From the NCBI GenBank assembly GCA_964417855.1, contig CAYQJB010000001.1, positions 102,709-166,708 on the forward strand: 64,000 nt of DNA. The letters run 5' to 3'. The number at the start of each line of letters is the position of its first letter. The first letter of the stretch is position 1. Below the pieces are notes generated by a model that saw nothing but the letters and a program-made list of their open reading frames with translations, had not been told where the DNA came from and searched no databases. Both the position numbers and the translations under genes were made by a program. The stretch is from an uncultured Candidatus Saccharibacteria bacterium (lineage in GTDB: Bacteria; Patescibacteriota; Minisyncoccia; Phycocordibacterales; CAIZLB01). Shown here one piece after another: positions 7,428 through 57,346 of this stretch.

Positions 7428-7519
7428 TGGCGGAGACGGAGGGATTCGAACCCTCGGTGCCGTTTAAAGGGCACACCTCTTTAGCAAAGAGGCACGTTAG
7501 ACCACTCTGACACGTCTCC
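7428..7519 (-). tRNA. tRNA-Ser (anticodon GCU), class II with long variable arm, CCA encoded
   Basis: Acceptor GGAGACG/CGTCTCC. Anticodon stem CCTCT/AGAGG with loop TTGCTAA. T-arm GAGGGTTCGAATCCCTC. Confidence 0.85.
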
Positions 7520-16759: not shown

Positions 16760-18955
16760 ATGACAGAAAAATCCACACACCTTAAATTCATAGACTATCC
16801 CATTTCATCAGTAATCAGGGTTACTCCTGATCAAGTTCCACACCTTAAAAAATTAAACCTTTTTACTGTTGGTGATATTCTAAGGCACTTCCCCACAAGA
16901 TATGGTGGAACATCTGAAGCCCAATATATCAAAGACCTAATGGTGGGCCAAAGCGCTACAATATACGGAAGAATTGGAAAACTAAAAACGGGTAAAAGTT
17001 TTAAGAGTAAGATGGCAATGGCCGAGGGCGTGGTAACCGACAACACCGGAAACATAAAAGTCATATGGCTTCATCAACCTTACATTGCAAAACTAATTCA
17101 AGAAGGAAGTTTGGTGAAAGTTACAGGTAAGGTTACAAAAAGAGGTGAAACAAATGGAATGATGAATCCAGAAATAGAATCTGTTGGAACTCTGCCAGAC
17201 CAAATTGGTAGAAACCTTTTTGCAGGCAGTGAAACACCAATAGAACATTTTTCGCCAGTATACCCAGAGACAAAAGGGGTGACATCAAAATGGATTTATC
17301 ACACACTTCAGAGAATTTTTAAGAATCCCCTTTTTGAATCAATAGAGGACCCAGTTCCCGCTGACATTCTTAAGAAATATAATTTACCAGCACTTAAAAC
17401 ATCTCTTGTTTGGATTCATACTCCTCAAAAGGAATCTGATGCTCAGGTCGCTAGAAAAAGATTTGCATTTGAGGAAGTGTTTTATATTCAAATTAAAAAT
17501 CAACAAGTTAGAGCTATGGCTGAAAAAGAAAAGGCTTACATAATTGAACCATCAAAAGAGACTCTTGGAGAATTCACTAGCAGATTCCCCTTTGCATTAA
17601 CCACCTCTCAACAAAAATCAATTAAAGATATTTTGAACGATTTTAAAAAAGGCACCCCAATGTCCCGACTTCTTGAAGGAGATGTAGGTTCAGGAAAAAC
17701 AGCCGTTGCAGCAACTACAGCATACGGAGTTGTGACAACAAGACCAAAAGGCAAGGACTCAAAAACACAAAACTTTGGAAACTTACAGGTTGCATACATG
17801 GCCCCCACAGAAATATTAGCAAAACAACACTTCGAATCTTTTATTCAGTATTTCAAACATATGCCAATTTCTATTGGTTTTATAAGCGGAACGGGATGCA
17901 GAAAATTTCCTTCAAAGGTTAATCAAGGTGGATGGACCGATATTTCAAGATCACAATTATTGAAATGGGTTGAGGGTGGTGAGATTGCAATACTAATTGG
18001 AACTCATGCATTAATTCAAAAGACAGTAAAATTCAAAGATCTGGCGTATGTAATAATTGATGAGCAACATAGATTTGGAACAGCACAGAGACAGAAGTTA
18101 GCACGCAAGCATGATGTTGTCCCCCATTTACTATCAATGACGGCAACACCAATTCCAAGAACTCTTGCCCTAACTCTTTATGGGGATTTAGATTTATCTT
18201 TGATTGATCAAATGCCCACAGGAAGAAAACCAATTATTACGGAAATTATTACTGAGCCAAAAAGAGATGCAACATATGAAAAAATCAAAAAAGAACTTGC
18301 TGAAGGAAGACAAGTTTATGTTATTTGTCCAAGAATAGAAGAAGCTGATCCTGACAAGGAGCAAGCTCTGAATGTTAAATCTGTTGTAGAGGAAGCAAAA
18401 AGACTAAAGCAAAAAATATTTCAAGAATGGAATATCGATATTCTTCATAGTAAAATGAAGCCTAAAGAAAAGGATGCGGTTATGCAGAGTTTTGAAAGAA
18501 AAGAAATTGATATCTTGGTTGCAACAAGTGTTGTTGAGGTTGGGGTGAATGTTCCAAATGCAACAATCATTTTAATTGAGGGTGCTGAGAGATTTGGTCT
18601 TTCACAACTTCATCAGCTTCGCGGGCGTGTTATCAGAAGTAATCATCAAGCATATTGTTATGTACTAAGTGACAGCAAGAGTGACAAAACAGTTGAACGT
18701 CTCAAGGCACTTAATACTGCAAAGAATGGATTTGAATTATCGGAGATGGATTTGAAGTTGAGGGGTACTGGAGAACTTTATGGAGGTAAACAATGGGGAG
18801 TAAATGATATTGGAATGGAAGCAATAAAAAATATTAAAATGGTGGAGGCAGCGCGAGCTGAGGCACAGAAATTAGTTAAGGAAGACTCTACCCTATCAAA
18901 ATACCCTATACTTAAAAAAACAATTGATTCAAAAAGAGAAATACATTTTGAATAG
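16760..18955 (+). CDS. recG: ATP-dependent DNA helicase RecG
   Basis: N-terminal wedge/OB domain. Helicase motifs LEGDVGSGKTAVAA, IIDEQHRFG, LSMTATPIPRTL, and QLHQLRGRVIRS near the C-terminus. Confidence 0.9.
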   Translation: MTEKSTHLKFIDYPISSVIRVTPDQVPHLKKLNLFTVGDILRHFPTRYGGTSEAQYIKDLMVGQSATIYGRIGKLKTGKSFKSKMAMAEGVVTDNTGNIKVIWLHQPYIAKLIQEGSLVKVTGKVTKRGETNGMMNPEIESVGTLPDQIGRNLFAGSETPIEHFSPVYPETKGVTSKWIYHTLQRIFKNPLFESIEDPVPADILKKYNLPALKTSLVWIHTPQKESDAQVARKRFAFEEVFYIQIKNQQVRAMAEKEKAYIIEPSKETLGEFTSRFPFALTTSQQKSIKDILNDFKKGTPMSRLLEGDVGSGKTAVAATTAYGVVTTRPKGKDSKTQNFGNLQVAYMAPTEILAKQHFESFIQYFKHMPISIGFISGTGCRKFPSKVNQGGWTDISRSQLLKWVEGGEIAILIGTHALIQKTVKFKDLAYVIIDEQHRFGTAQRQKLARKHDVVPHLLSMTATPIPRTLALTLYGDLDLSLIDQMPTGRKPIITEIITEPKRDATYEKIKKELAEGRQVYVICPRIEEADPDKEQALNVKSVVEEAKRLKQKIFQEWNIDILHSKMKPKEKDAVMQSFERKEIDILVATSVVEVGVNVPNATIILIEGAERFGLSQLHQLRGRVIRSNHQAYCYVLSDSKSDKTVERLKALNTAKNGFELSEMDLKLRGTGELYGGKQWGVNDIGMEAIKNIKMVEAARAEAQKLVKEDSTLSKYPILKKTIDSKREIHFE

Positions 18956-18994
18956 AGAAAGTAGAAAAAAATAAACAAAATTGGAAATAGAAAT

Positions 18995-19021
18995 ACCCGG
19001 CCTCTCTTCGAGAGGCCGGGT
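18995..19021. terminator. Bidirectional intrinsic terminator (acccggcctctc ttcg agaggccgggt)
   Basis: 12-bp GC-rich stem after recG and after the convergent ORF 19042..19410. Confidence 0.6.
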
Positions 19022-19041
19022 ATGTTTCTGAACATTCAGCC

Positions 19042-19410
19042 TCAGCTGAATGCGAACTCCCGCTGGAGAATATCATTAGCAGGCACAGACTTTACTGTGC
19101 GACTACGTGCAATTTGCTCGGAATCATAAATCATTTGATCAATGTACTGTCTCCATGTGGAAACGTACCTCAGCCCCCTCAGGCTGACACAGAACTTCAA
19201 ATGTCTTTCCTCGCAGACTATTTCAACAACCTGAACAGACCCCTCCTCAGTACCACACTCCACATGAGATATTTCATCCAGCACCCTCATGTAACTTGTG
19301 TTTGAAATTGGGTATTCAACATCATTAACAACCAAGATGTGAACCTGACGTCCCACAACATGGTGTCCTGACAATGAACATTTAAACGACAATGAGCTAG
19401 TTTTCATCAC
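19042..19410 (-). CDS. Hypothetical protein in a locally GC-enriched (about 45-47%) segment
   Basis: 122-aa ORF with mixed composition. Region 19030..19420 is visibly GC-richer than its flanks. Confidence 0.35.
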   Translation of the reverse strand: MMKTSSLSFKCSLSGHHVVGRQVHILVVNDVEYPISNTSYMRVLDEISHVECGTEEGSVQVVEIVCEERHLKFCVSLRGLRYVSTWRQYIDQMIYDSEQIARSRTVKSVPANDILQREFAFS

Positions 19411-19523: not shown

Positions 19524-19596
19524 TGCGAGCACTAGGATTCGAACCTAGGACCGGTCGTGTATAAGACGACTGCTCTACCAACTGAGCTATGCTCGC
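19524..19596 (-). tRNA. tRNA with anticodon UAU (AUA-decoding tRNA-Ile2 type)
   Basis: GCGAGCA acceptor. D-arm TAGCTCAGTTGGTAGAGC. Anticodon stem GTCGT/ACGAC with loop CTTATAC. T-arm CTAGGTTCGAATCCTAG. No CCA. Confidence 0.8.
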
Positions 19597-22841: not shown

Positions 22842-23239
22842 GGGGATGACATGCTTCGACACATGTCTGTATTCTTTATGTGCGTAACCGAGTGTCCTAG
22901 AATCTCGTTAAACTTCAGGAAACCTTAGATGCAAAAGCCCAAAAAGCAGTTGTTTCTCCATTTTTTGGAGTAAACAGCTTTGCATTTGCAACGGTTAGAG
23001 CCTAGCTCGCCCTCTTGCAACGTTCTTGTCTACTCTTTCTGTAGGTAGATAAAGGGCGCAATATATACAGGATAGGTTTGTAGAGTTTCTTAGACTACAA
23101 TCCAAAATCAATAAGATCGGTGACGCTGCGTTTTGATACTTTTATAGTATCGTCACTTAAAACCAAAAAATTGTCTACGTTACGTAGACTCATAAAGAAA
23201 CAACGTGTGCACGCGGGTTCAATTCCCGCCATCTCCACC
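22842..23239 (+). ncRNA. ssrA: tmRNA (ssrA), standard one-piece
   Basis: 5' end GGGGATGACATGCTTCGACA (compare E. coli GGGGCUGAUUCUGGAUUCGACG). 3' tRNA-like end GCGGGTTCAATTCCCGCCATCTCCACC with G3:U70 pair (compare GCGGGUUCAACUCCCGCCAGCUCCACCA). Candidate resume codon GCA at about 22930 preceded by UAG-AU as in E. coli UAG-UC-GCA. Putative tag reading frame ends ...AFATVRA-UAG. Confidence 0.85.
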
Positions 23240-23410
23240 GACAAACATAAGCCACCAAGCGTAAGCGAGGTGGTTTTATGTTTGGCGGATAAAGATGACC
23301 GCCAGGAATTGAAAGGCGGAAGAAAAGCTCTGGGAGAGGTTTTCTGAGCCGGGGTCGCGAGTACTTAGCGAAGACGAGCCATGCGAAGTCTGAGCTTAGT
23401 AACTCGTGAC

Positions 23411-26194: not shown

Positions 26195-26560
26195 ACAAAA
26201 CGTGCTAGCGCACACAGTGGCTGTAGGAGTCTCCCTTAAGCTATGGGTCCAAACCCCATCAGACAAACGAGATGAATAGATGTGCCAAGTGGCCCCCGAA
26301 AGGGCAACCACCACAAAAGCAGTCAAACAGCCAATCAAGTGGTCACGGGCAACGGACGCAAACCAACATGAGGGATTCAATCATCCAATGGTAAACGTAA
26401 CGCCCCAAGTTTTCTGTCCGGAGTGTGTTCCTCCCCGTGCTGGGTCAAGCAAGCTTTGTTCTTGGCGATCAACAGCTTAATCCAGCACGGGCGAGTTTCC
26501 CACTCTATCAGTCTGACTAGTTCAGACTCACGCCGTCCAACCAATAGGTTGGCGGTTTTT
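26195..26560 (+). ncRNA. Candidate GC-rich structured ncRNA (about 365 nt) upstream of infC, with sigma70-like promoter (TTGACA 26157, TAATAT about 26180) and intrinsic terminator (ccaacc aata ggttgg cggtttttt). Class unassigned (possible L20-responsive infC leader and/or independent sRNA)
   Basis: About 50% GC against a 35% background. No ORF of 60 aa or more except short overlapping ones. Helices cccgtgctgg...ccagcacggg and GNRA-like gcccccgaaagggc. Confidence 0.4.
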
Positions 26561-26678
26561 TATTACCAGTTTTGTCACCAGATTTTTATCACTAGTTTTA
26601 TTACTAGAAACAACGTTCTTTTGACAATGTATATAGCCAAACTTTAAATCAAGTGCTATACTGCTTTTAATACAAAAT

Positions 26679-30586: not shown

Positions 30587-30933
30587 AATGATATTAGGCT
30601 TATAATAACATTATTATTTCTGCTAATCTATTTTTCGACAGAAACACAACACCCCTTGCTTTTAGACAAGGGGTGTAATGTGAGATGCTGCAGGTGTCGT
30701 CCCTAGAGATAAACTAGGTGGGTGTTCTACAGTTAAAGCTGAAAGCCTTAAGTGACGCGAACTCCCTGATTAAAAAATCAAGCTAAGTCGACAAATGCGG
30801 CACCTCACCCATCATTATATTCTAATTAACAGTTTTGTAACTATTTACAAAACGATAAAATCTTAGCCTATTTCTGCCGTATATTTCTGCCGTATATTAC
30901 AGGCTCATTAACAAGAATCCGTTTCTATAATAT

Positions 30934-45765: not shown

Positions 45766-46020
45766 TGTTTGTGTGAAAATAATAGCCCGTGTTGAGCCAG
45801 TTAACGTATACTAGCAAAAATAATGAAAGTGTCAACCACTAAAAGGCTTATTTTAGGCATTTCGATACTATTATTGTAAAGATTATGGTCTAATTTGGGT
45901 TTTTGACTAAAATGGCCAAATTTTGATGTTTTTTTTGCCGTTTTTTTTACTGTTTCTATTAACAATAATTTATAGAAAATTAGTAATTATATATAAATTA
46001 TTCATCATAAGGGGGAGTGA

Positions 46021-46049
46021 AGGCTCGGCGGGGTAACCCCGCCGAGCCT
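46021..46049. repeat. GC-rich perfect palindrome (aggctcggcgggg taa ccccgccgagcct), copy 1 of 2, immediately downstream of paralog A
   Basis: 13-bp stem, 3-nt loop. Identical stem at 46637..46665. Confidence 0.7.
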
Positions 46050-46063
46050 AAATAAATTGCCGA

Positions 46064-46504
46064 TCAAGATACGCTTTTAAACGCTTCGATTTCAGCTTCT
46101 GCAATAATGAACCGCTGCTCATAACAACGAAGTCTTTCCCACATTGGAAGTAATACAATTGAAGGATGGTCCTCTCTAAATTGCTGCCAAAGTGGAGTAA
46201 ATTCCCAAAAATGGAGCAGGTGCTGAATCTCCTTTAGAGTTACCCCATTTTCCTTATAAAACTTTTCTACAATCAGATTTTGCTTTACCTGATCTCTAGT
46301 CCCAGAGAGCTTTTGACTTGCAAAATAAAGGTTTTCTAACATCTCAACTTTTTTCCTAATTGGCACTTCAAGATCAAGGATGCAGGAATCAGCTTCTTGA
46401 ATATTAACCCAAAAAGCAAGTCTTTCCTCCGGAATACTGTTAACATCCCAAATCTGATACAAAACACGAAAAAATCGAGCTTTAGACATATCTAAAAATT
46501 TCAT
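46064..46504 (-). CDS. Hypothetical Trp-rich protein, paralog A of a tandem pair inserted between rpsS and rplB
   Basis: Shares LYQIW.V / ER.AF / EKFY.E.GV / LP..ERL..YEQR(F/Y)I motifs with 46696..47121 (about 30% identity, judged by eye). Confidence 0.5.
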   Translation of the reverse strand: MKFLDMSKARFFRVLYQIWDVNSIPEERLAFWVNIQEADSCILDLEVPIRKKVEMLENLYFASQKLSGTRDQVKQNLIVEKFYKENGVTLKEIQHLLHFWEFTPLWQQFREDHPSIVLLPMWERLRCYEQRFIIAEAEIEAFKSVS

Positions 46505-50312: not shown

Positions 50313-51506
50313 TTAGGCTACGATCTTAGTTACAACGCCGGCTCCTACAGTTCTACCTCCCTCGCGAATAGCGAATCTTGTATTGTCTTCAAGAGCAATT
50401 GGGGCTACCAATTTAACCTTGAAAGTAACTGTATCACCAGGCATAACCATGTCTACGCCCTCCTTTAGAGTAACCTCTCCTGTTACGTCAGTTGTACGTA
50501 CGTAGAACTGAGGTTTGTAACCTGAGAAGAATGGAGTGTGTCGACCGCCTTCTTCCTTCTTAAGGATATAGACTTCTGCTTCAAAATCTGTATGTGGCTT
50601 AACTGATCCTGGCTTTGCTAGAACTTGACCTCTTGCAAGATCATCCTTCTTAACACTTCTTAGTAGAATACCAGCGTTGTCTCCAGCTTGACCTTCTGAC
50701 AATTGCTTGTTGAACATTTCAATACCTGTAACAACTGTTTTTTGAGTATCATGTAGTCCGATGATTTCAATTTCTTCACCGATCTTGATTATACCTTTTT
50801 CAATTTTACCTGTAACAACTGTTCCTCTTCCTTCAATTGAGAAAATATCTTCAATAGGCATAAGGAAAGGCTTATCAGTCTCTCTAACTGGTTGTGGAAT
50901 ATAGTTATCTAGAGCGTCAACTAATTCAAGAACCTTCTTTGACCATTCATCATCAATACCTGGAGCTTCAAGTGCCTTAAGCGCTGAACCTCTGATAACT
51001 GGTGCATCTTCGTCAAATCCGTTCTTTGCTAGAAGCTCTCTGATTTCTGCCTCAACTAGGTCAAGCATGTCTGCATCATCAACCATGTCACACTTGTTCA
51101 TGAATACAACAATCTTTGGAACACCAACTTGCTTTGCAAGTAGAACGTGCTCGCGAGTTTGTGGCATAGGTCCGTCAGTAGCAGCAACAACCAAGATTGC
51201 GCCGTCCATTTGAGCAGCTCCTGTGATCATGTTCTTGATGTAGTCGGCGTGGCCTGGTGCATCAATGTGAGCATAGTGTCTTGCGTTTGTAGTGTACTCA
51301 CTGTGTGAAAGTGAAATTGTAATACCACGAGCCTTTTCCTCTGGGGCCTTGTCAATATCTCCGATTGACTTAATTGTAGCCTTCATACCTGCTCTGTTAA
51401 GAACATTAAGAATAGCTGCAGTTAATGTAGTCTTTCCGTGATCAACGTGTCCAATTGTACCCACGTTAACGTGAGGCTTTGAACGATCAAAAATTTCTAT
51501 TGCCAT
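50313..51506 (-). CDS. tuf: Elongation factor Tu
   Basis: [26 protein letters not shown]-motifs. Confidence 0.95.
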
Positions 51507-51901
51507 ATATTTGCTTGATAATTAAATGAATATATCGATATTTATATGGATATCTCCATAAATCTTTATACTCACCAATTAATAAAAATTAAATTAATAA
51601 GTTTCTAAATTTTATCCCCAGTGCTTCTCTCAGTAGTTTAGCTTAATTATGTTTGATTCTTAATACTGCCTTAAATCAAAAAGAAGATTGGGATAAAAAA
51701 CCGCCAAAAGGCGTCTAATGGATAATATCAGAAGGTGGGGGTTTGTCAATGTCAAAGCTATAACCTACCCCCCCCCACTTAAGGTTAATCAACCCTGAAT
51801 TCTGTTTCGGTCTTTTGACCATCGTCAGACAAGATACACATCTTATGACAGAACCCGTTCACTCAACGGGCAGAGTTGCACAGTTTATGTGCTTTATTAC
51901 G

Positions 51902-52141
51902 CTATTCACATAACATTTCGAGGTATTTATCATCAAAATTTTCTACCTCATTCCAATCTTCACCTTGTCTTTTGACAAAAATGAAGTCTTCAACCCTTAA
52001 GGTTGTATTTGAAAAGACGAAGGCACAGCCTTCCTCTAGGGTCTTAACGGTTTGGAAATAAGCCATATAGGCAAATCCACCACCCGGGGCAAAACCCCAG
52101 CACTTAACCCATGTTACCTTTGCTTTTTGTGTGTTTTGCAT
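51902..52141 (-). CDS. Small hypothetical protein (80 aa, MQNTQKAKVTWVKCWGFAPGGGFAYMAYF...)
   Basis: Balanced composition. AGGA 13 nt upstream of ATG at 52141. About 60 nt downstream of the hammerhead motif. The longer track ORF (to 52246) overlaps the ribozyme. Confidence 0.3.
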   Translation of the reverse strand: MQNTQKAKVTWVKCWGFAPGGGFAYMAYFQTVKTLEEGCAFVFSNTTLRVEDFIFVKRQGEDWNEVENFDDKYLEMLCE

Positions 52142-52203
52142 AGTTATAAACGTCCTAACTTTAGAGATTAAGGCACTCGTAGCTACACAAAACGTTAAAA
52201 AGA

Positions 52204-52258
52204 ACCACTGTTTCGCTTTTTTAAGCTCATCAGTCGAAGTACGCACTTCGAGACAGAG
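52204..52258 (-). ncRNA. Hammerhead ribozyme motif, minimal type III (stem III open)
   Basis: Minus strand 5'-CCUCUG-UC / UCGAAGU-GCGU-ACUUCGA / CUGAUGA / GCUU-AAAA-AAGC / GAAA / CAGUGG-3'. Full catalytic core (CUGAUGA, GAAA, cleavage site GUC), G10.1-C11.1 and C15.2-G16.2 pairs, 7-bp stem I, 4-bp stem II, 6/7-bp stem III. Confidence 0.5.
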
Positions 52259-53149
52259 GACGGATAGAACGTCTATCCGTGATTTACTACAAGTACTCTA
52301 TCGAGCAGTTGTAATTTCTGTTCAAAAGGTAGTTTTCTCTACCTCGGCTTTTCATCTCGCGATAAAAGCAGAACTCAAAGCAATTATTTGCTTTGAACGT
52401 ACTCGCGATAATCCGCAAGGGACATCACGAGCCCGTCAACGACGACGTAGGTCATGGTTTATACTTTTTGAAATGTTCATTGCTATTAACACACTGTATT
52501 TTGGCTAATATTTATTAATTCTATTTAAGGACTCAAAATCAGCTCGATTTTGGATTAAATTAACAGTGTTTACTTATCTGTGTTGTAGTATAGCCATGTT
52601 CATATTTTTGTCAAGATGTTTTGACACTTTGTTTTTATTTTGTCATTTGTACCCTTTTATATAGCCATATTTAATCAATATAAAAGTAAATTGATAACAA
52701 CAAAACTCTATAAAGGGTATACAAAATTAGAAAATATATTATATTATGTTTTTTTATATTGCCAATCTAATTACCCAAGAATAAGGTCGTTTTAGCTTAA
52801 ATCTATTAAATGTCTAAATTGCTTGACAAAAGAATCAGACATGCTACATTGTGATACGGAATTTGACTGTACTTTCGGCTATAAAGCCGACAGATCAAAG
52901 TGTTCTAACCCAAAAGTGCAATGCCCGATTAACCCTAAAGGAAAGGTGGCTTGTCGTGAACCTAGCCGGGTTTTCACGACAGGCCTCTGAGTACTAAAAA
53001 AGGGACTTGTTTATAACTTCTGGGCATAGTAACCGCAAGCACACCATATACACCACCACCACAATGCATGATTAATTAGAATGATTGTCCTTTTTGAAAA
53101 CCCTTCATATTTGTAAACCTCCCCACCAAGGTAGTTCACAAACAAAAAA

Positions 53150-53177
53150 AGCTCGGTTCCTACCCAGGAACCGAGCT
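53150..53177 (-). terminator. Intrinsic terminator after the TrmB-like gene (agctcggttcc taccca ggaaccgagct + U7 on minus strand)
   Basis: Perfect 11-bp stem, A7 on plus strand upstream. Confidence 0.7.
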
Positions 53178-53198
53178 AATTTTTTACCTAATTTTTTC

Positions 53199-54047
53199 TT
53201 ATTTACCTTCCTCTATATTTTTAAAGGCTAATTCAAACAAAGAGGTTAGGGTTTCCGCAAAATCCTTATTATAAACAATCATTCCACCCAATTTTGATCC
53301 CAAAGTAGCTATTCTTACCTTATTGTTGTAAATACTAATATCGCAACTTAAAGGATACTTTTTACCATCTACGAACAACCTATTCCCCAAGTTAGCACTT
53401 CTGTCAATTTCCCCTTTTGAATACGTATATATTGATTTACCGGAAATTTTCTTATCTACCCTTATTTTACGGAATCTATTACTATCGGCCTCTGAAAACA
53501 GACTTTCTATTAAATCCTTTGGATAAATCATATACATAGTGCCGCCTTTGTCATCTTTTGATTGGAAAAGCTCCTCAGTCATACTTATAACGCCCTCTTT
53601 TCCTTCAAAAAATTTAACTACAGGCTTTTCAGCATCCTCTCTGTAAATACTCTTAAGTTGTGGAACTATATCCTTAAGTCTTTTACTTTGTTCATCCAGC
53701 TGTATTTTACGTCTTTCAATATAAGTCTCCAGTCTTTCTGGTGGTTCAGCTTGGTATCTAACCTTTTTATCAACTAAAACTTCAAATATTAGCCCTTTAT
53801 TTGAAAGCGATTCAAGTACTGGATAGATAGTTGTACGATTAATTTTAGTCTTCTCAGCTAAATCAAGTACAGAATCATTGTCTACCTCCAAAAGAGACAG
53901 GTAAACCTTTGCCTCTTTCTCTGATAAACCTAAATCTTCAAGATATTTTTCAAACATAAGCATATTATACCATAGAATATTTAAATTTCGTTTTAATAGA
54001 CAATTTTTGGTTTTAAATTGTACTGCAAATGTAGGATTATTTACCAA
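53199..54047 (-). CDS. TrmB-family transcriptional regulator (N-terminal wHTH, C-terminal effector domain)
   Basis: MFEKYLEDLGLSEKEAKVYLSLLEVDNDSVLDLAEKTKINRTTIYPVLESLSNKGLI matches the TrmB HTH. Start likely Met at about 53957. Confidence 0.65.
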   Translation of the reverse strand: MVNNPTFAVQFKTKNCLLKRNLNILWYNMLMFEKYLEDLGLSEKEAKVYLSLLEVDNDSVLDLAEKTKINRTTIYPVLESLSNKGLIFEVLVDKKVRYQAEPPERLETYIERRKIQLDEQSKRLKDIVPQLKSIYREDAEKPVVKFFEGKEGVISMTEELFQSKDDKGGTMYMIYPKDLIESLFSEADSNRFRKIRVDKKISGKSIYTYSKGEIDRSANLGNRLFVDGKKYPLSCDISIYNNKVRIATLGSKLGGMIVYNKDFAETLTSLFELAFKNIEEGK

Positions 54048-55119
54048 ATATTCCAGATAATAGATTGTTTACACCTTGCCAGATTGAAGCAAATAACCCA
54101 AAATTAGACAACTGAGATACCTTAGTACTAATTTTAACAACACCGGTACTTGTTGCGTTAAACTTAGGATTGTTTGTATCCGTAATTACAATTTTGTAAG
54201 GTTTATCATACTGAACAGCCTGACCAACAATATCCCAGGTTACACTTGCTTTTCCTCCACCTAAATTGGAACCAGCTGTTACTGAGCCTAAAATACTAGT
54301 TCCAACCCATCCAAAAGGAACTAACCCAATACTCACAGAATCAGTAGAAGATAAATTATTAGACGTCCAAACAATATCTTTTGTTACAACTGTTGTTTTT
54401 GTCTTAATATAGACCTTCAGATTAGGGTTACTAGTTGTTGTAGTAAAAGGTACCCAAGTCTCATCAACACTCAGAGATAATAAAGACAATGAACAAGGCA
54501 AGGAGATAGTAAGAGGAAATTGATTAGTAGTTTTTCCAGTATACAGAGCTCTTGCTTGAACCTTAGCTACTTGCCCTATTTCGTAATTATTACACAGAAT
54601 ATAGTTCGGAACTGTCAAAATTTCTGTAGTTGAAGCAGCGTTAATTTGCTTAATTAAAACACTATCGATATACAAAGACCAACTATTAACCTTTGAATTT
54701 GGGATATATAGATTACCGATTTTAAACGAATGATTACCTGGGTTGCTCTCAGTATCCACAGAATATATGTAAGGAGATGTTGTTGCAAGAACAATAGTTG
54801 AGGTAGCTACTGTTGAGCTTGCTAATTGCTTATTTAGCGTCTGAAGCTGCAGATTTAATGAGATTAGATTTTGCTGTAGTGTTGCAACAGAGACATCCGC
54901 TGAGGATAACTGGTTTTGAAGTGCTAAAATCTGTGAGTTTATTGATGAAATTTGAGTTCGAAATGAGCTAATCTGTGCAGTTGTTGATGCAATATCCTTT
55001 TTTGTTGAGTCTATCTGAGTTTGAATCTGTGCTGTTGTTGCTGCGTTTGTAATGAAGGGTGACACCAGCATGGAAACGCCTATCAGCGATAGTGCAACCA
55101 AATATATTTTTATTTTCAT
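54037..55119 (-). CDS. Secreted hypothetical protein (signal peptide, Gln/Ser-rich coiled coil, beta-rich C-terminal domain)
   Basis: N-terminal signal/TM. Heptad repeats QIQTQIDSTKKDIASTTAQISSFRTQISSINSQILALQNQL. Stop overlaps the TrmB start. Confidence 0.5.
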   Translation of the reverse strand: MKIKIYLVALSLIGVSMLVSPFITNAATTAQIQTQIDSTKKDIASTTAQISSFRTQISSINSQILALQNQLSSADVSVATLQQNLISLNLQLQTLNKQLASSTVATSTIVLATTSPYIYSVDTESNPGNHSFKIGNLYIPNSKVNSWSLYIDSVLIKQINAASTTEILTVPNYILCNNYEIGQVAKVQARALYTGKTTNQFPLTISLPCSLSLLSLSVDETWVPFTTTTSNPNLKVYIKTKTTVVTKDIVWTSNNLSSTDSVSIGLVPFGWVGTSILGSVTAGSNLGGGKASVTWDIVGQAVQYDKPYKIVITDTNNPKFNATSTGVVKISTKVSQLSNFGLFASIWQGVNNLLSGIFGK

Positions 55120-55192
55120 AAGTTATATTATACAACAAAAAAACAACCCCTAGTTTGAGGAGTTGTTTTTTTTGTGGATAAGTTTTATCAGA

Positions 55193-57346
55193 TTATTTTC
55201 TTGCCTCAACGATAGCCTTCTCAACGTTAGCTGGAACTGTATCGTAGTGATCAAATTCCATTGAAACTGAACCTCTTCCCTGTGTCATTGATCTAATATC
55301 TGTTGTATAACCGAACATTTCAGATAGAGGAACCATGGCTCTAATAACTCTAATTCCACCTGGTCTATCATCCATTCCTTCAATTTGACCTCTCTTTGAT
55401 GAAAGTGAACCGGTAACGTCTCCCATGAATTGTTCTGGTGTTAGAGCTTCAACCTTCATTATAGGTTCAAGAATAACAGGTCTTGCGCGTCTTGCTCCCT
55501 CTTGGAAAGCTTGAGAAGCTGCAATCTTGTAAGCGATTTCTGATGAGTCAACATCATGGTATGAACCAAATGTTAATTCACAAGATACATTTGTTAGAGG
55601 GAAACCAGCAACAATACCTCTTTCCATAGCTTCCTTAACTCCCTTTTCAACTGCTGGAATGAATTCTGTTGGAATAACACCTCCCTTAATTGAGTCAATA
55701 AACTCAAAGTCAGCTGTTCTATGAACGTTTTTAGGAATTTTAGCTCCTTCCTCAAGTGGCTCTAGGTGCTTAATTGTCATTCTAACGTGTCCATATTGCC
55801 CCTTACCTCCAGATTGCTTAACATATTTATGTTCAGCTTCTGCACTTCCTAGAATTGTCTCTCTGTATGCAACCTGAGGAGCACCAACATTAGCCTCAAC
55901 ACCAAACTCTCTCTTCATTCTATCAACCATAATTTCAAGGTGTAGTTCACCCATTCCAGAAATAACAGTATCTCCAGTTTCTGTGTTTGATGTAACTCTA
56001 AAAGTTGGATCTTCATCACCTAATTTCTTAAGTGCAACACCCATTTTCTCTTGATCAGCCTTTGTTTTAGGCTCGATTCTAAGTGAAACAACAGGTTCTG
56101 CAAATTTAATAGGGTCAAGAATGATTGGGTGATTTTCATCACAGAAAGTATGAGATGTCTTTGCTTCCTTAAGACCAACAGCCGCAACGATTTCTCCTGC
56201 AAAAACTTTCTTAACATCCTCTCTTTTATTTGCCTGAAGTCTAACGATACGCCCAAGTCTCTCCTTATTTCCTGTTGTTGAGTTGTAAATATATGAACCA
56301 GCTTCAATTGTTCCTGAATAAACACGGAAGAATGTAAGTTGTCCAACAAACGGGTCAGTTTGTAGCTTGAAAGCAAGAGCAGAAAAAGGCTCTTCATCTG
56401 AAGCGTGTCTTTCAATTACATCTCCTGTTTCTGGATCGAGACCTTTTATAGCAGGAATATCTAATGGAGATGGAAGGTAATCGATAACAGCATCCAAAAC
56501 TAGTTGAACACCCTTATTTTTAAGAGCAGAACCTGTGAAAACTGGGAATACCTTGTTCTCAATAACTCCTTTTCTAAGAGAAGCCTTAAGCTCATCTATT
56601 GTAAACACAGCGTCATCACCTTGTTCTAGATATCTGTTCATCAACTCTTCATCAAATTCAACACACTTCTCTACAAGCTCTTGTCTTCTCAGCTTTGACT
56701 CATCAAGCATGTCAGCAGGAATTTCTTCTTCTGTAACAGTACTTCCCATATCTCCTGTAAATGTGTATGACTTCATCTTAAGAAGGTCAATTACTCCAGA
56801 CAGATTCTCTTCTTCTCCGATTGGAAGTTGCATTCTTATTGCATTCTTATTTAGTCTATCCAAAATTGATTGATATGATCTCTCAAATGATGCACCCATT
56901 CTATCTAGCTTATTAATAAAACATATACGTGGAACGTGATATTTATCAGCTTGTCTCCAAACTGTCTCAGATTGAGCTTCAACACCAGCAACCCCATCAA
57001 ATACTACAACTCCACCATCAAGAACCTTTAGAGAACGTTCAACTTCAACTGTGAAGTCTACGTGACCTGGTGTGTCAATAATGTTGAAACGGTGCATCTT
57101 AGAAAGATCCTTACCCATGTAAACTGGATTCCAGAAACAAGTAATAGCAGCTGCAGTAATTGTAATACCACGCTCTTTTTCTTGTTCCATCCAGTCTGTT
57201 ACAGCTTCACCTTCATGAACCTCTCCAATTTTATGGCTCATTCCTGTGTAATAAAGAACACGTTCTGATGTTGTTGTCTTTCCAGCATCAATGTGGGCGA
57301 TAATACCGAAGTTTCTAATTTTCTCTAATGGGTAATCACGTTGCAT
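55193..57346 (-). CDS. fusA: Elongation factor G
   Basis: [34 protein letters not shown]-motifs. 717 aa. Confidence 0.95.

Follow-up and report, generated by a model that had tools for sequence, protein, structure and literature searches.

In prophages, multiple hammerhead ribozymes flank individual genes, and processing of the transcripts into single-gene mRNAs has been proposed; circular or spliced products of these clustered phage hammerheads were sought and none were found (Perreault et al. 2011, PMC3088659). The function of bacterial and phage hammerheads is an open question (PMC6765202). Here, we describe a pair of hammerheads in the 1.7-kb spacer that precedes tuf in a Patescibacteria chromosome, analyzed within a stretch of 64,000 nucleotides (nt) of contig CAYQJB010000001.1 (hereafter, the window, with position 1 at its first letter). 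On the minus strand of this spacer, two type III hammerheads, HH1 and HH2, bracket a 79-codon gene, ORF79, with a predicted OB-fold product. The interpretation we favor, with a probability of about 0.6, is that of a phage-type, ribozyme-punctuated gene, the mRNA of which is trimmed at both ends and which lies next to the conserved tuf promoter. The bracketing layout itself is already known from phages; new are the undescribed, rare gene with a predicted OB fold, the conserved extra hairpins, and the unusual host and location. Apparently, no hammerhead pair had been noted before in a genome of the Patescibacteria, and we found no literature linking the two terms.

A permissive Rfam scan produced one strong match in the spacer, to Hammerhead_3 (RF00008) at 52259..52205 (44.2 bits, E 7e-8), and no other Rfam family. 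The initial annotation, made from the sequence alone, had likewise listed one hammerhead motif, but there are two: HH2 was noticed by reading the sequence downstream of the small open reading frame (ORF). A covariance model, R1, was built exclusively from five hammerheads of other loci (two from L020 and one each from L021, L012 and L015), with no window sequence included. Searched against the 64-kb window, R1 matched exactly two sites, HH2 (72.9 bits, E 1.3e-18) and HH1 (61.2 bits, E 3.6e-15), with the next-best match at E 0.25, and it had no matches in the loci of the relatives described below. In the alignment of all seven ribozymes, 95.7% of the cells are paired and 10 of the 17 base pairs have changed on both sides. 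The observed pairing or covariation score was reached by none of 500 shuffles, and sliding the 3' partner by 1-3 columns reduced pairing to 29-53%. HH1 and HH2 are type III ribozyme folds with covariation.

In both ribozymes, loops cap stems I and II while stem III stays open, the core nucleotides C3-U4-G5-A6-N7-G8-A9 ... G12-A13-A14 are present along with the A15.1-U16.1 pair (read from the sequence), and the cleavage triplet is GUC (52254..52252 in HH1, 51849..51847 in HH2). The core of HH1 is CUGAUGA ... GAAA; that of HH2 is CUGACGA ... GAAA, with one inserted U between A9 and G10.1. HH2 consists of stem III UUCUGU/ACAGAA, a 7-bp stem I with a GUGU loop, and stem II GGUC/GACC with an AAAA loop. 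An additional base after A9 is known from nature, as A10 of the CChMVd (+) hammerhead, and the helix/loop geometry of the ELVd hammerhead (7/4, 4/4, 6) is that of the window ribozymes (PMC1636495). The extra-U core variant is conserved in L020 and L021, where the triplet of HH2 is GUA, which is also known from natural hammerheads. Under the Rfam model, the L012 hammerhead scores 46.7 bits and the L021 HH2 27.3 bits, the latter with the inserted u displayed. Judging by these features, HH1 would cleave after C52252 (between GUC and U) and HH2 after C51847. The RNA between the two predicted cleavages is 405 nt long, contains ORF79, folds with a z-score of -4.9, and would have 5'-OH and 2',3'-cyclic phosphate termini.

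The bracketed gene overturns the earlier statement that the spacer has no convincing coding sequence: ORF79 is conserved, and public assemblies already annotate it as a gene. One homologue was returned when 1.84 billion representative proteins were scanned in full, and a profile search brought the total to three full-length homologues (65, 47, and 44% identity), all on short metagenome contigs. Across the three comparisons, the differences at codon positions 1/2/3 number 26/23/43, 18/11/33, and 25/22/52; they are concentrated at third positions, and ORF79 is therefore coding. Its product has no Pfam, PHROG, NCBIfam, PADLOC or PDB sequence match. The AlphaFold2 model is a five-stranded barrel (pLDDT 78.5), a predicted OB fold, and the protein may bind RNA. 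Protein-guided scans detected no relatives of ORF79 in IMG/VR or in species-representative genomes, and one metagenome locus with a relative, L020. Three further candidates were rejected: P0123, a 1491-aa repeat protein, as a relative of ORF79 (E 7e-6 over 27 residues, a spurious, repeat-amplified match that was left unused); a 114-aa GTG-extended form of ORF79, the extension of which has no family support, crosses HH1 and is missing in the homologues; and a plus-strand ORF of 125 aa (52131-52508), also without family support.

Additional structures of the cassette are conserved as well. The long hairpin upstream of ORF79 holds the AUG and the first codons of the gene in its 3' arm and an AGGA Shine-Dalgarno-like motif (52156..52153) in its apical part; among the window, L020 and L021, three of its pairs have changed on both sides. 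Downstream of the gene, hp1 and hp2 are joined by an invariant linker, AACUCU. Two pairs of hp1 show compensatory changes in L012; in hp2, a C-G pair is replaced by A-U in L021 and a U-A pair is added in L012. Hairpin hp2 abuts HH2 just as a 9-bp hairpin, ggatagacgttctatcc (52280..52260), abuts HH1. The order of elements in L020 is the same as in the window (hairpin, HH1, AUG hairpin, ORF, hp1, hp2, HH2), and the ribozyme-bounded unit there is 391 nt; L021 and L012 retain the ORF, hp1, the AACUCU linker, hp2 and a hammerhead. A search of IMG/VR with the pattern GTTGAGTGAAC-N3-4-TTCTGTC picked up three loci (L017-L019) that represent one coding sequence with no ribozyme and were dismissed as chance matches; a stricter pattern combining hp2 and stem III had zero matches in the species-representative genomes and IMG/VR.

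The L012 gene cluster combines the ORF79 homologue and hammerhead with a twister-P1 ribozyme, a tmRNA-like tRNA-like element and a STIV_B116-like gene, that is, three different RNA-processing elements inside 1.5 kb. The twister-P1 match (392-455; 53 bits against a cut-off of 67 bits) lies upstream of the STIV_B116-like gene. The third element, of 84 nt (858-941, and also L014 611-694), aligns with the tmRNA model (74 bits) only at the model's two ends; it has a tRNA-like domain and a CCA end with no mRNA-like part, and is not called by ARAGORN. Flanked by two genes of the ribozyme-punctuated cluster, it might serve as an RNase P/Z processing signal, a form of "tRNA punctuation".

The hammerhead subtype, defined by a core pattern in which AAAA closes a stem II of 4 bp, was detected in more than 120 viral contigs of IMG/VR, which is a lower bound. 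Among the matches listed (L024-L143), R1 identified 129 hammerheads in 80 loci, often in same-strand arrays with 0.3-2.5 kb between copies and with up to five copies per array (for example, L055 and L102); the 405-nt distance between HH1 and HH2 is in keeping with this spacing. Where two copies lie close together, they enclose one small ORF, which is related neither to the ORFs of other pairs nor to ORF79. The 35-nt stretches that immediately precede these ribozymes have a median folding energy of -10.2 kcal/mol, compared with -3.2 for control stretches located another 200 nt upstream (Wilcoxon p 1e-13, n=113), so that a hairpin abutting the ribozyme is a general feature. That a stable hairpin almost always precedes the 113 phage hammerheads suggests that "hairpin plus ribozyme" is a terminator-independent module for 3'-end formation, and this result may be more general than the locus itself. 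Weak phage-family matches also lie beside the homologous cassettes, where the neighboring genes are STIV_B116-like (phrog_5063, E 7e-15) and DUF3850 (phrog_986, E 1e-9), on contigs that are too short for a viral call.

Table 1. Features of the spacer upstream of tuf and of the flanking genes (window coordinates)
Feature	Coordinates	Strand	Remarks
HH1, type III hammerhead	52202..52259	minus	Rfam RF00008, model R1, covariation
HH2, type III hammerhead	51797..51853	minus	model R1; variant kept in L020 and L021
RNA between the two predicted cleavages, 405 nt, with ORF79	51847..52251	minus	coordinates read from the sequence
ORF79, 79 aa, predicted OB fold	51902..52141	minus	
Long hairpin burying the AUG	52133..52193	minus	20-bp stem kept in the window, L020 and L021
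hp1	51892..51878	minus	between the ORF79 stop and HH2
hp2	51870..51854	minus	invariant loop UUGAGUGAA
Conserved tuf promoter and leader	51507..51750	minus	shared with L008, L009 and L011
Array of about seven consecutive hairpins upstream of HH1	52260..52460	minus	includes the repeat-flanked hairpin 52375-52396
Best sigma-70-like putative promoter upstream of the cassette	52587..52614	minus	TTGACA-16-TATACT, 11/12 consensus matches
Segment with 13-bp hairpin (52948-52985) and small hairpin (52872-52893)	52800..53140	none assigned	
Bidirectional intrinsic terminator of the TrmB-like gene	53150..53177	minus	12-bp stem, T-runs on both sides
tuf	51506..50313	minus	
TrmB-like winged-helix ORF	54047..53199	minus	
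Coiled-coil ORF, 360 aa	55119..54037	minus	
fusA	57346..55193	minus	

The locus lies between the str and S10 ribosomal gene blocks, and the ORF coordinates bear out the gene order given in the initial annotation, namely, fusA, the coiled-coil ORF, the TrmB-like regulator, the spacer and tuf, all on the minus strand. Homologues of its EF-Tu come from Patescibacteria, in Paceibacteria-like metagenome-assembled genomes. The relatives L008, L009 and L011 share with the spacer only the segment 51750..51507, which is about 78-83% identical as a whole and includes long invariant stretches; relatives whose EF-Tu is 92% identical have nothing in common with the window between the fusA stop and position 51750, and the end of fusA itself is shared. 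The spacer therefore consists of a conserved tuf promoter/leader and about 1.45 kb of lineage-specific cargo. It is a mosaic of a clade-conserved tuf control region and lineage-specific cargo at a hypervariable fusA-tuf site, and the cargo extends past the spacer, through the TrmB-like and coiled-coil genes, up to the fusA stop. At the same site, L009 carries a single 133-aa ORF, L011 a Bro-N gene and others, and L008 a 7-kb block with AAA_21 and Fic genes. The separation of fusA from tuf, which had been presented as a departure from the normal arrangement, is the rule in this clade and no peculiarity of this genome: the two genes are apart in the relatives with 92% identical EF-Tu, too. The TrmB-like genes of the relatives were considered as equivalents and rejected, being paralogues (29-36% identical) at another site with no common flanks. 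As a side observation, the fusA-tuf and rplB-rpsS gaps of L008, L009, L011 and the window indicate that both ribosomal-protein super-operon junctions of this clade are variable cargo sites, the cargo comprising Fic/AAA_21, Bro-N, TrmB-like regulators, a periplasmic-binding protein and a methyltransferase.

The tuf control region has a near-consensus promoter, TTGACA (51749..51744)-17-TATTAT (51727..51722), with a -10 element of the extended type (TTGACA-17-TGATATTAT), a leader hairpin GACGCC/GGCGG followed by U6 (51715..51695) at the predicted transcription start, and one or two copies of the palindrome GGAGATATCC near the tuf start codon. The conservation of these 245 nt (at about 7730-8000 in L008, L009 and L011) is above the intergenic expectation, and they may represent a leader, attenuator or operator of tuf not yet described from Paceibacteria.

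Local composition and folding follow a similar patchwork. The previously noted contrast in GC content is real, with values of 0.40-0.44 at 51.7-52.5 kb and 52.8-53.1 kb and of 0.22-0.29 in the AT-rich parts (51.4-51.7 and 52.5-52.9 kb). Minus-strand windows of 200 nt across the entire 64 kb were compared with dinucleotide shuffles (5th percentile, z = -3.65): the spacer goes beyond this threshold, and is hairpin-dense beyond chance as had been claimed, at 51701-52000 (z -4.0 to -5.5) and 52201-52500 (z -4.3 to -4.8), but is ordinary at 52501-53100 (z -1.1 to -3.0). Elsewhere in the 64 kb, strong folding was observed at 18901-19100 (z -7.9), 30601-30800 (z -7.6), 55001-55200 (z -6.5), 26401-26600 (z -6.2) and 46001-46200 (z -6.0), all on the minus strand; the Rfam matches in the 64 kb, a tmRNA (22842-23240) and two tRNAs (19524-19596 and 7431-7519), cover none of these five windows.

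The individual structures listed in the initial annotation were all found in the sequence, some of them slightly displaced: the direct repeat CTCGCGATAA (52356-52365 and 52402-52411, on both sides of the hairpin 52375-52396), ggatagacgttctatcc at 52260-52280, the pair GGTGGGGG and CCCCCCCC (51734-51742 and 51767-51775), the tcggc-tataa-gccga hairpin at 52872-52893, and the TrmB terminator with its 12-bp stem and T-run. The 13-bp stem exists as well, at 52948-52960 and 52973-52985 rather than at 52937..52974. Half of the GGTGGGGG/CCCCCCC pair falls inside the conserved tuf promoter/leader. A reading of the 10-bp repeat around 52375-52396 as a target-site duplication was rejected, given the estimated chance expectation of approximately 0.2 such pairs per 1.7 kb and several per 64 kb. 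The hairpin array that ends in the 9-bp hairpin next to HH1 has no homologues and no family match. Further upstream, a second sigma-70-like site is present at 52765..52738, and the segment 52800..53140 contains a promoter-like site on the plus strand (52823-52850), folds unexceptionally (z -1.1 to -2.6), and has no Rfam, tRNA, phage or plasmid match and no homologue in any locus compared. BLAST searches of 51700-53200 against phages and of 52260-53150 against plasmids returned only short AT-rich chance matches, and the spacer contains no tRNA or tmRNA according to ARAGORN. Weak Rfam matches at 53135-53280 (PyrG, L20 and L10 leaders, ncr952, miRNAs) were discarded as driven by the terminator hairpin and far below the cut-offs. 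After the TrmB terminator, on the minus strand (53076-53124), a strong Shine-Dalgarno-like GGGGAGG precedes by 9 nt a 10-codon ORF (MKGFQKGQSF), which could encode a leader peptide or be a chance occurrence.

Under the interpretation of a phage-type, ribozyme-punctuated gene, a minus-strand transcript would start upstream of HH1, perhaps at the promoter-like site 52614..52587, a putative promoter by its match to the consensus, and would self-cleave after C52252 and C51847, yielding a 405-nt monocistronic ORF79 mRNA. The 5' end of this mRNA would be a folded ribozyme body with a 5'-OH, and its 3' end would comprise a stable hairpin, seven further nucleotides and a terminal cyclic phosphate; the upstream RNA would end likewise, with a stable hairpin, 7-8 nt and a cyclic phosphate. 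Double cleavage would thus set both mRNA ends without a terminator. The downstream tail running into the tuf promoter would be cut off, uncoupling the cassette from read-through there, and the AUG-sequestering hairpin could additionally gate translation of ORF79. We infer a stabilizing and insulating role for the cleavages.

Several observations weigh against this interpretation. A stabilizing or insulating role is undemonstrated for any bacterial hammerhead, and mRNA processing is a proposal (PMC6765202). HH1, at 44.2 bits, scores below the Rfam gathering score of 48.5 bits, HH2 is not reported by the Rfam scan at E<=10, and transcription and self-cleavage in this organism are deduced from sequence. 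The OB-fold model was derived from four sequences, and only one of five models is confident. Only four distinct cassette variants are available, all on short contigs, and 185,579 species-representative genomes and IMG/VR contain no cassette. Nothing recognizably viral is present in the fusA-tuf gap of the window, and the neighboring genes have no convincing PHROG, PADLOC or NCBIfam phage match; the case for a phage origin therefore comes from the ribozyme subtype and the weak phage-family matches beside the homologues. Finally, the locus is also found in GCA_037127815.1 and several metagenome assemblies, and every public copy, the same-species contigs L001-L006 and L144 among them, matches the window at 100% identity, leaving no within-species variation to test.

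The cassette might instead be a stranded remnant of a phage or mobile element in the fusA-tuf site that has no present role in the cell and is intact only through recent insertion. The lineage-specific character of the cargo, the flanks 52260-52580 and 52800-53140 with no homologues anywhere searched, the extreme rarity of the ORF79 family, and the failure to find an integrase or att repeats are compatible with such an origin. The part of the initial annotation that pointed to a mobile insertion stands in so far as the insertion is lineage-specific, but no decay is visible: ORF79 is intact and shows a purifying codon-position pattern over four lineages, and neither catalytic core nor any accessory hairpin is disrupted, with compensatory changes present. 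These features speak for a functional module wherever it resides, although not necessarily one that benefits the host, and we consider a stranded relic unlikely.

The leading idea of the initial annotation, that the spacer holds independent small RNA genes or a regulatory leader of tuf, fares worse and is, in our judgment, improbable. The RNA 52582..52252, which includes the hairpin array, does fold strongly (z -7.6), the plus strand at 52855-53190 has a promoter-like site and a terminator end (z -4.1), and the conserved 51750..51507 has a hairpin with U6 at the predicted transcription start. However, relatives keep tuf and its leader without everything upstream of 51750, so these parts cannot be needed for tuf expression; the hammerhead is the only Rfam family; the ribozyme-adjacent hairpins are accounted for as accessory structures; and the plus-strand z-score comes mostly from the terminator hairpin. 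The claim of structured RNA as such is borne out by the two hammerheads and the hairpins with compensatory changes, but several of the listed hairpins belong to the hammerheads as accessory structures and do not form separate RNA genes. Similarly, the description of the spacer as more than a simple leader applies to the DNA upstream of 51750, whereas the last ~245 nt are the conserved tuf promoter/leader.

A circular or RNA-mobile element, in which the excised 405-nt RNA is ligated by RtcB or by reversal of the ribozyme reaction into a protein-coding circle, is a long shot: although 5'-OH and 2',3'-cyclic phosphate ends can be ligated, HH1 and HH2 have UCUGUC in common in the 5' strand of stem III, so that a circle would rebuild a hammerhead in the window, and the unit sizes of 405 and 391 nt resemble small ribozyme-bounded RNAs, such as the 186-399 nt segments enclosed by tandem ribozyme pairs in RNA viruses (bioRxiv 10.1101/2024.05.16.594327), HH1 and HH2 differ in sequence and lie outside direct repeats, the stem III strands of L020 are incompatible, which means that a rebuilt junction ribozyme is no conserved feature, the 405-nt fold is multi-hairpin rather than rod-like, and the search for circular or spliced products of clustered phage hammerheads was negative (PMC3088659). 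It is comparably far-fetched, in our estimate, that the 405-nt RNA is a self-contained module, circularized or in a stable ribonucleoprotein, with the predicted OB-fold product bound to the invariant UUGAGUGAA loop of its own RNA. If true, this module would correspond, in bacteria or phages, to retrozyme and viroid-like RNAs while encoding a protein, and it could account for the movement of the cassette between unrelated genomic contexts.

For genome annotation, a seemingly empty gap of 1.7 kb turns out to contain a gene, two ribozymes and a conserved promoter/leader. The locus is a compact test case, with two ribozymes with nucleotide-exact predicted cleavage sites, one small gene, a hairpin that buries the start codon, conserved 3' hairpins, and the conserved promoter of an essential gene directly downstream.

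Compared with described systems, the window ribozymes share with RF00008 and ELVd hammerheads the open stem III, capped stems I and II, the CUGANGA / GAAA core and the GUC triplet, and with the ELVd hammerheads also the helix/loop sizes (6-7/4-6, 4/4, 6-7); they differ in scoring below the curated RF00008 cut-off and, in HH2, in the C at position 7 and the extra U after A9, analogous to the CChMVd (+) A10. Unlike viroid hammerheads, they are DNA-encoded inside an operon, with no replicating circular RNA. As in retrozymes and viroid-like circular RNAs (PMC4918200, PMC7761336), two type III hammerheads delimit a unit-length RNA, but the unit in the window codes for a protein, has no rod-like fold and resides in a bacterial host. 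Furthermore, in contrast to retrozymes, HH1 and HH2 are not copies in direct repeats but differ throughout stems I and II, and the spacer has no long direct repeats. The gene neighborhoods of twister and hammerhead ribozymes (PMC6765202) find a parallel in L012, where the cassette adjoins twister-P1, so that different self-cleaving classes punctuate one gene cluster; the window itself has no twister, and we found no literature linking published ribozyme-associated gene families to ORF79, STIV_B116-like or DUF3850 proteins. The prophage clusters of Perreault et al. 2011 are likewise characterized by two same-strand hammerheads around one small gene, a few hundred nt apart, with the identity of the bracketed gene varying between cases. 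The pair in the window differs from these clusters in its location in a Patescibacteria chromosome with no recognizable phage genes around it, in the bracketed gene, which belongs to an undescribed and very rare family with a predicted OB fold, and in the extra conserved structures of the cassette, namely, the AUG-burying hairpin and the hp1-AACUCU-hp2 element with its invariant loop.

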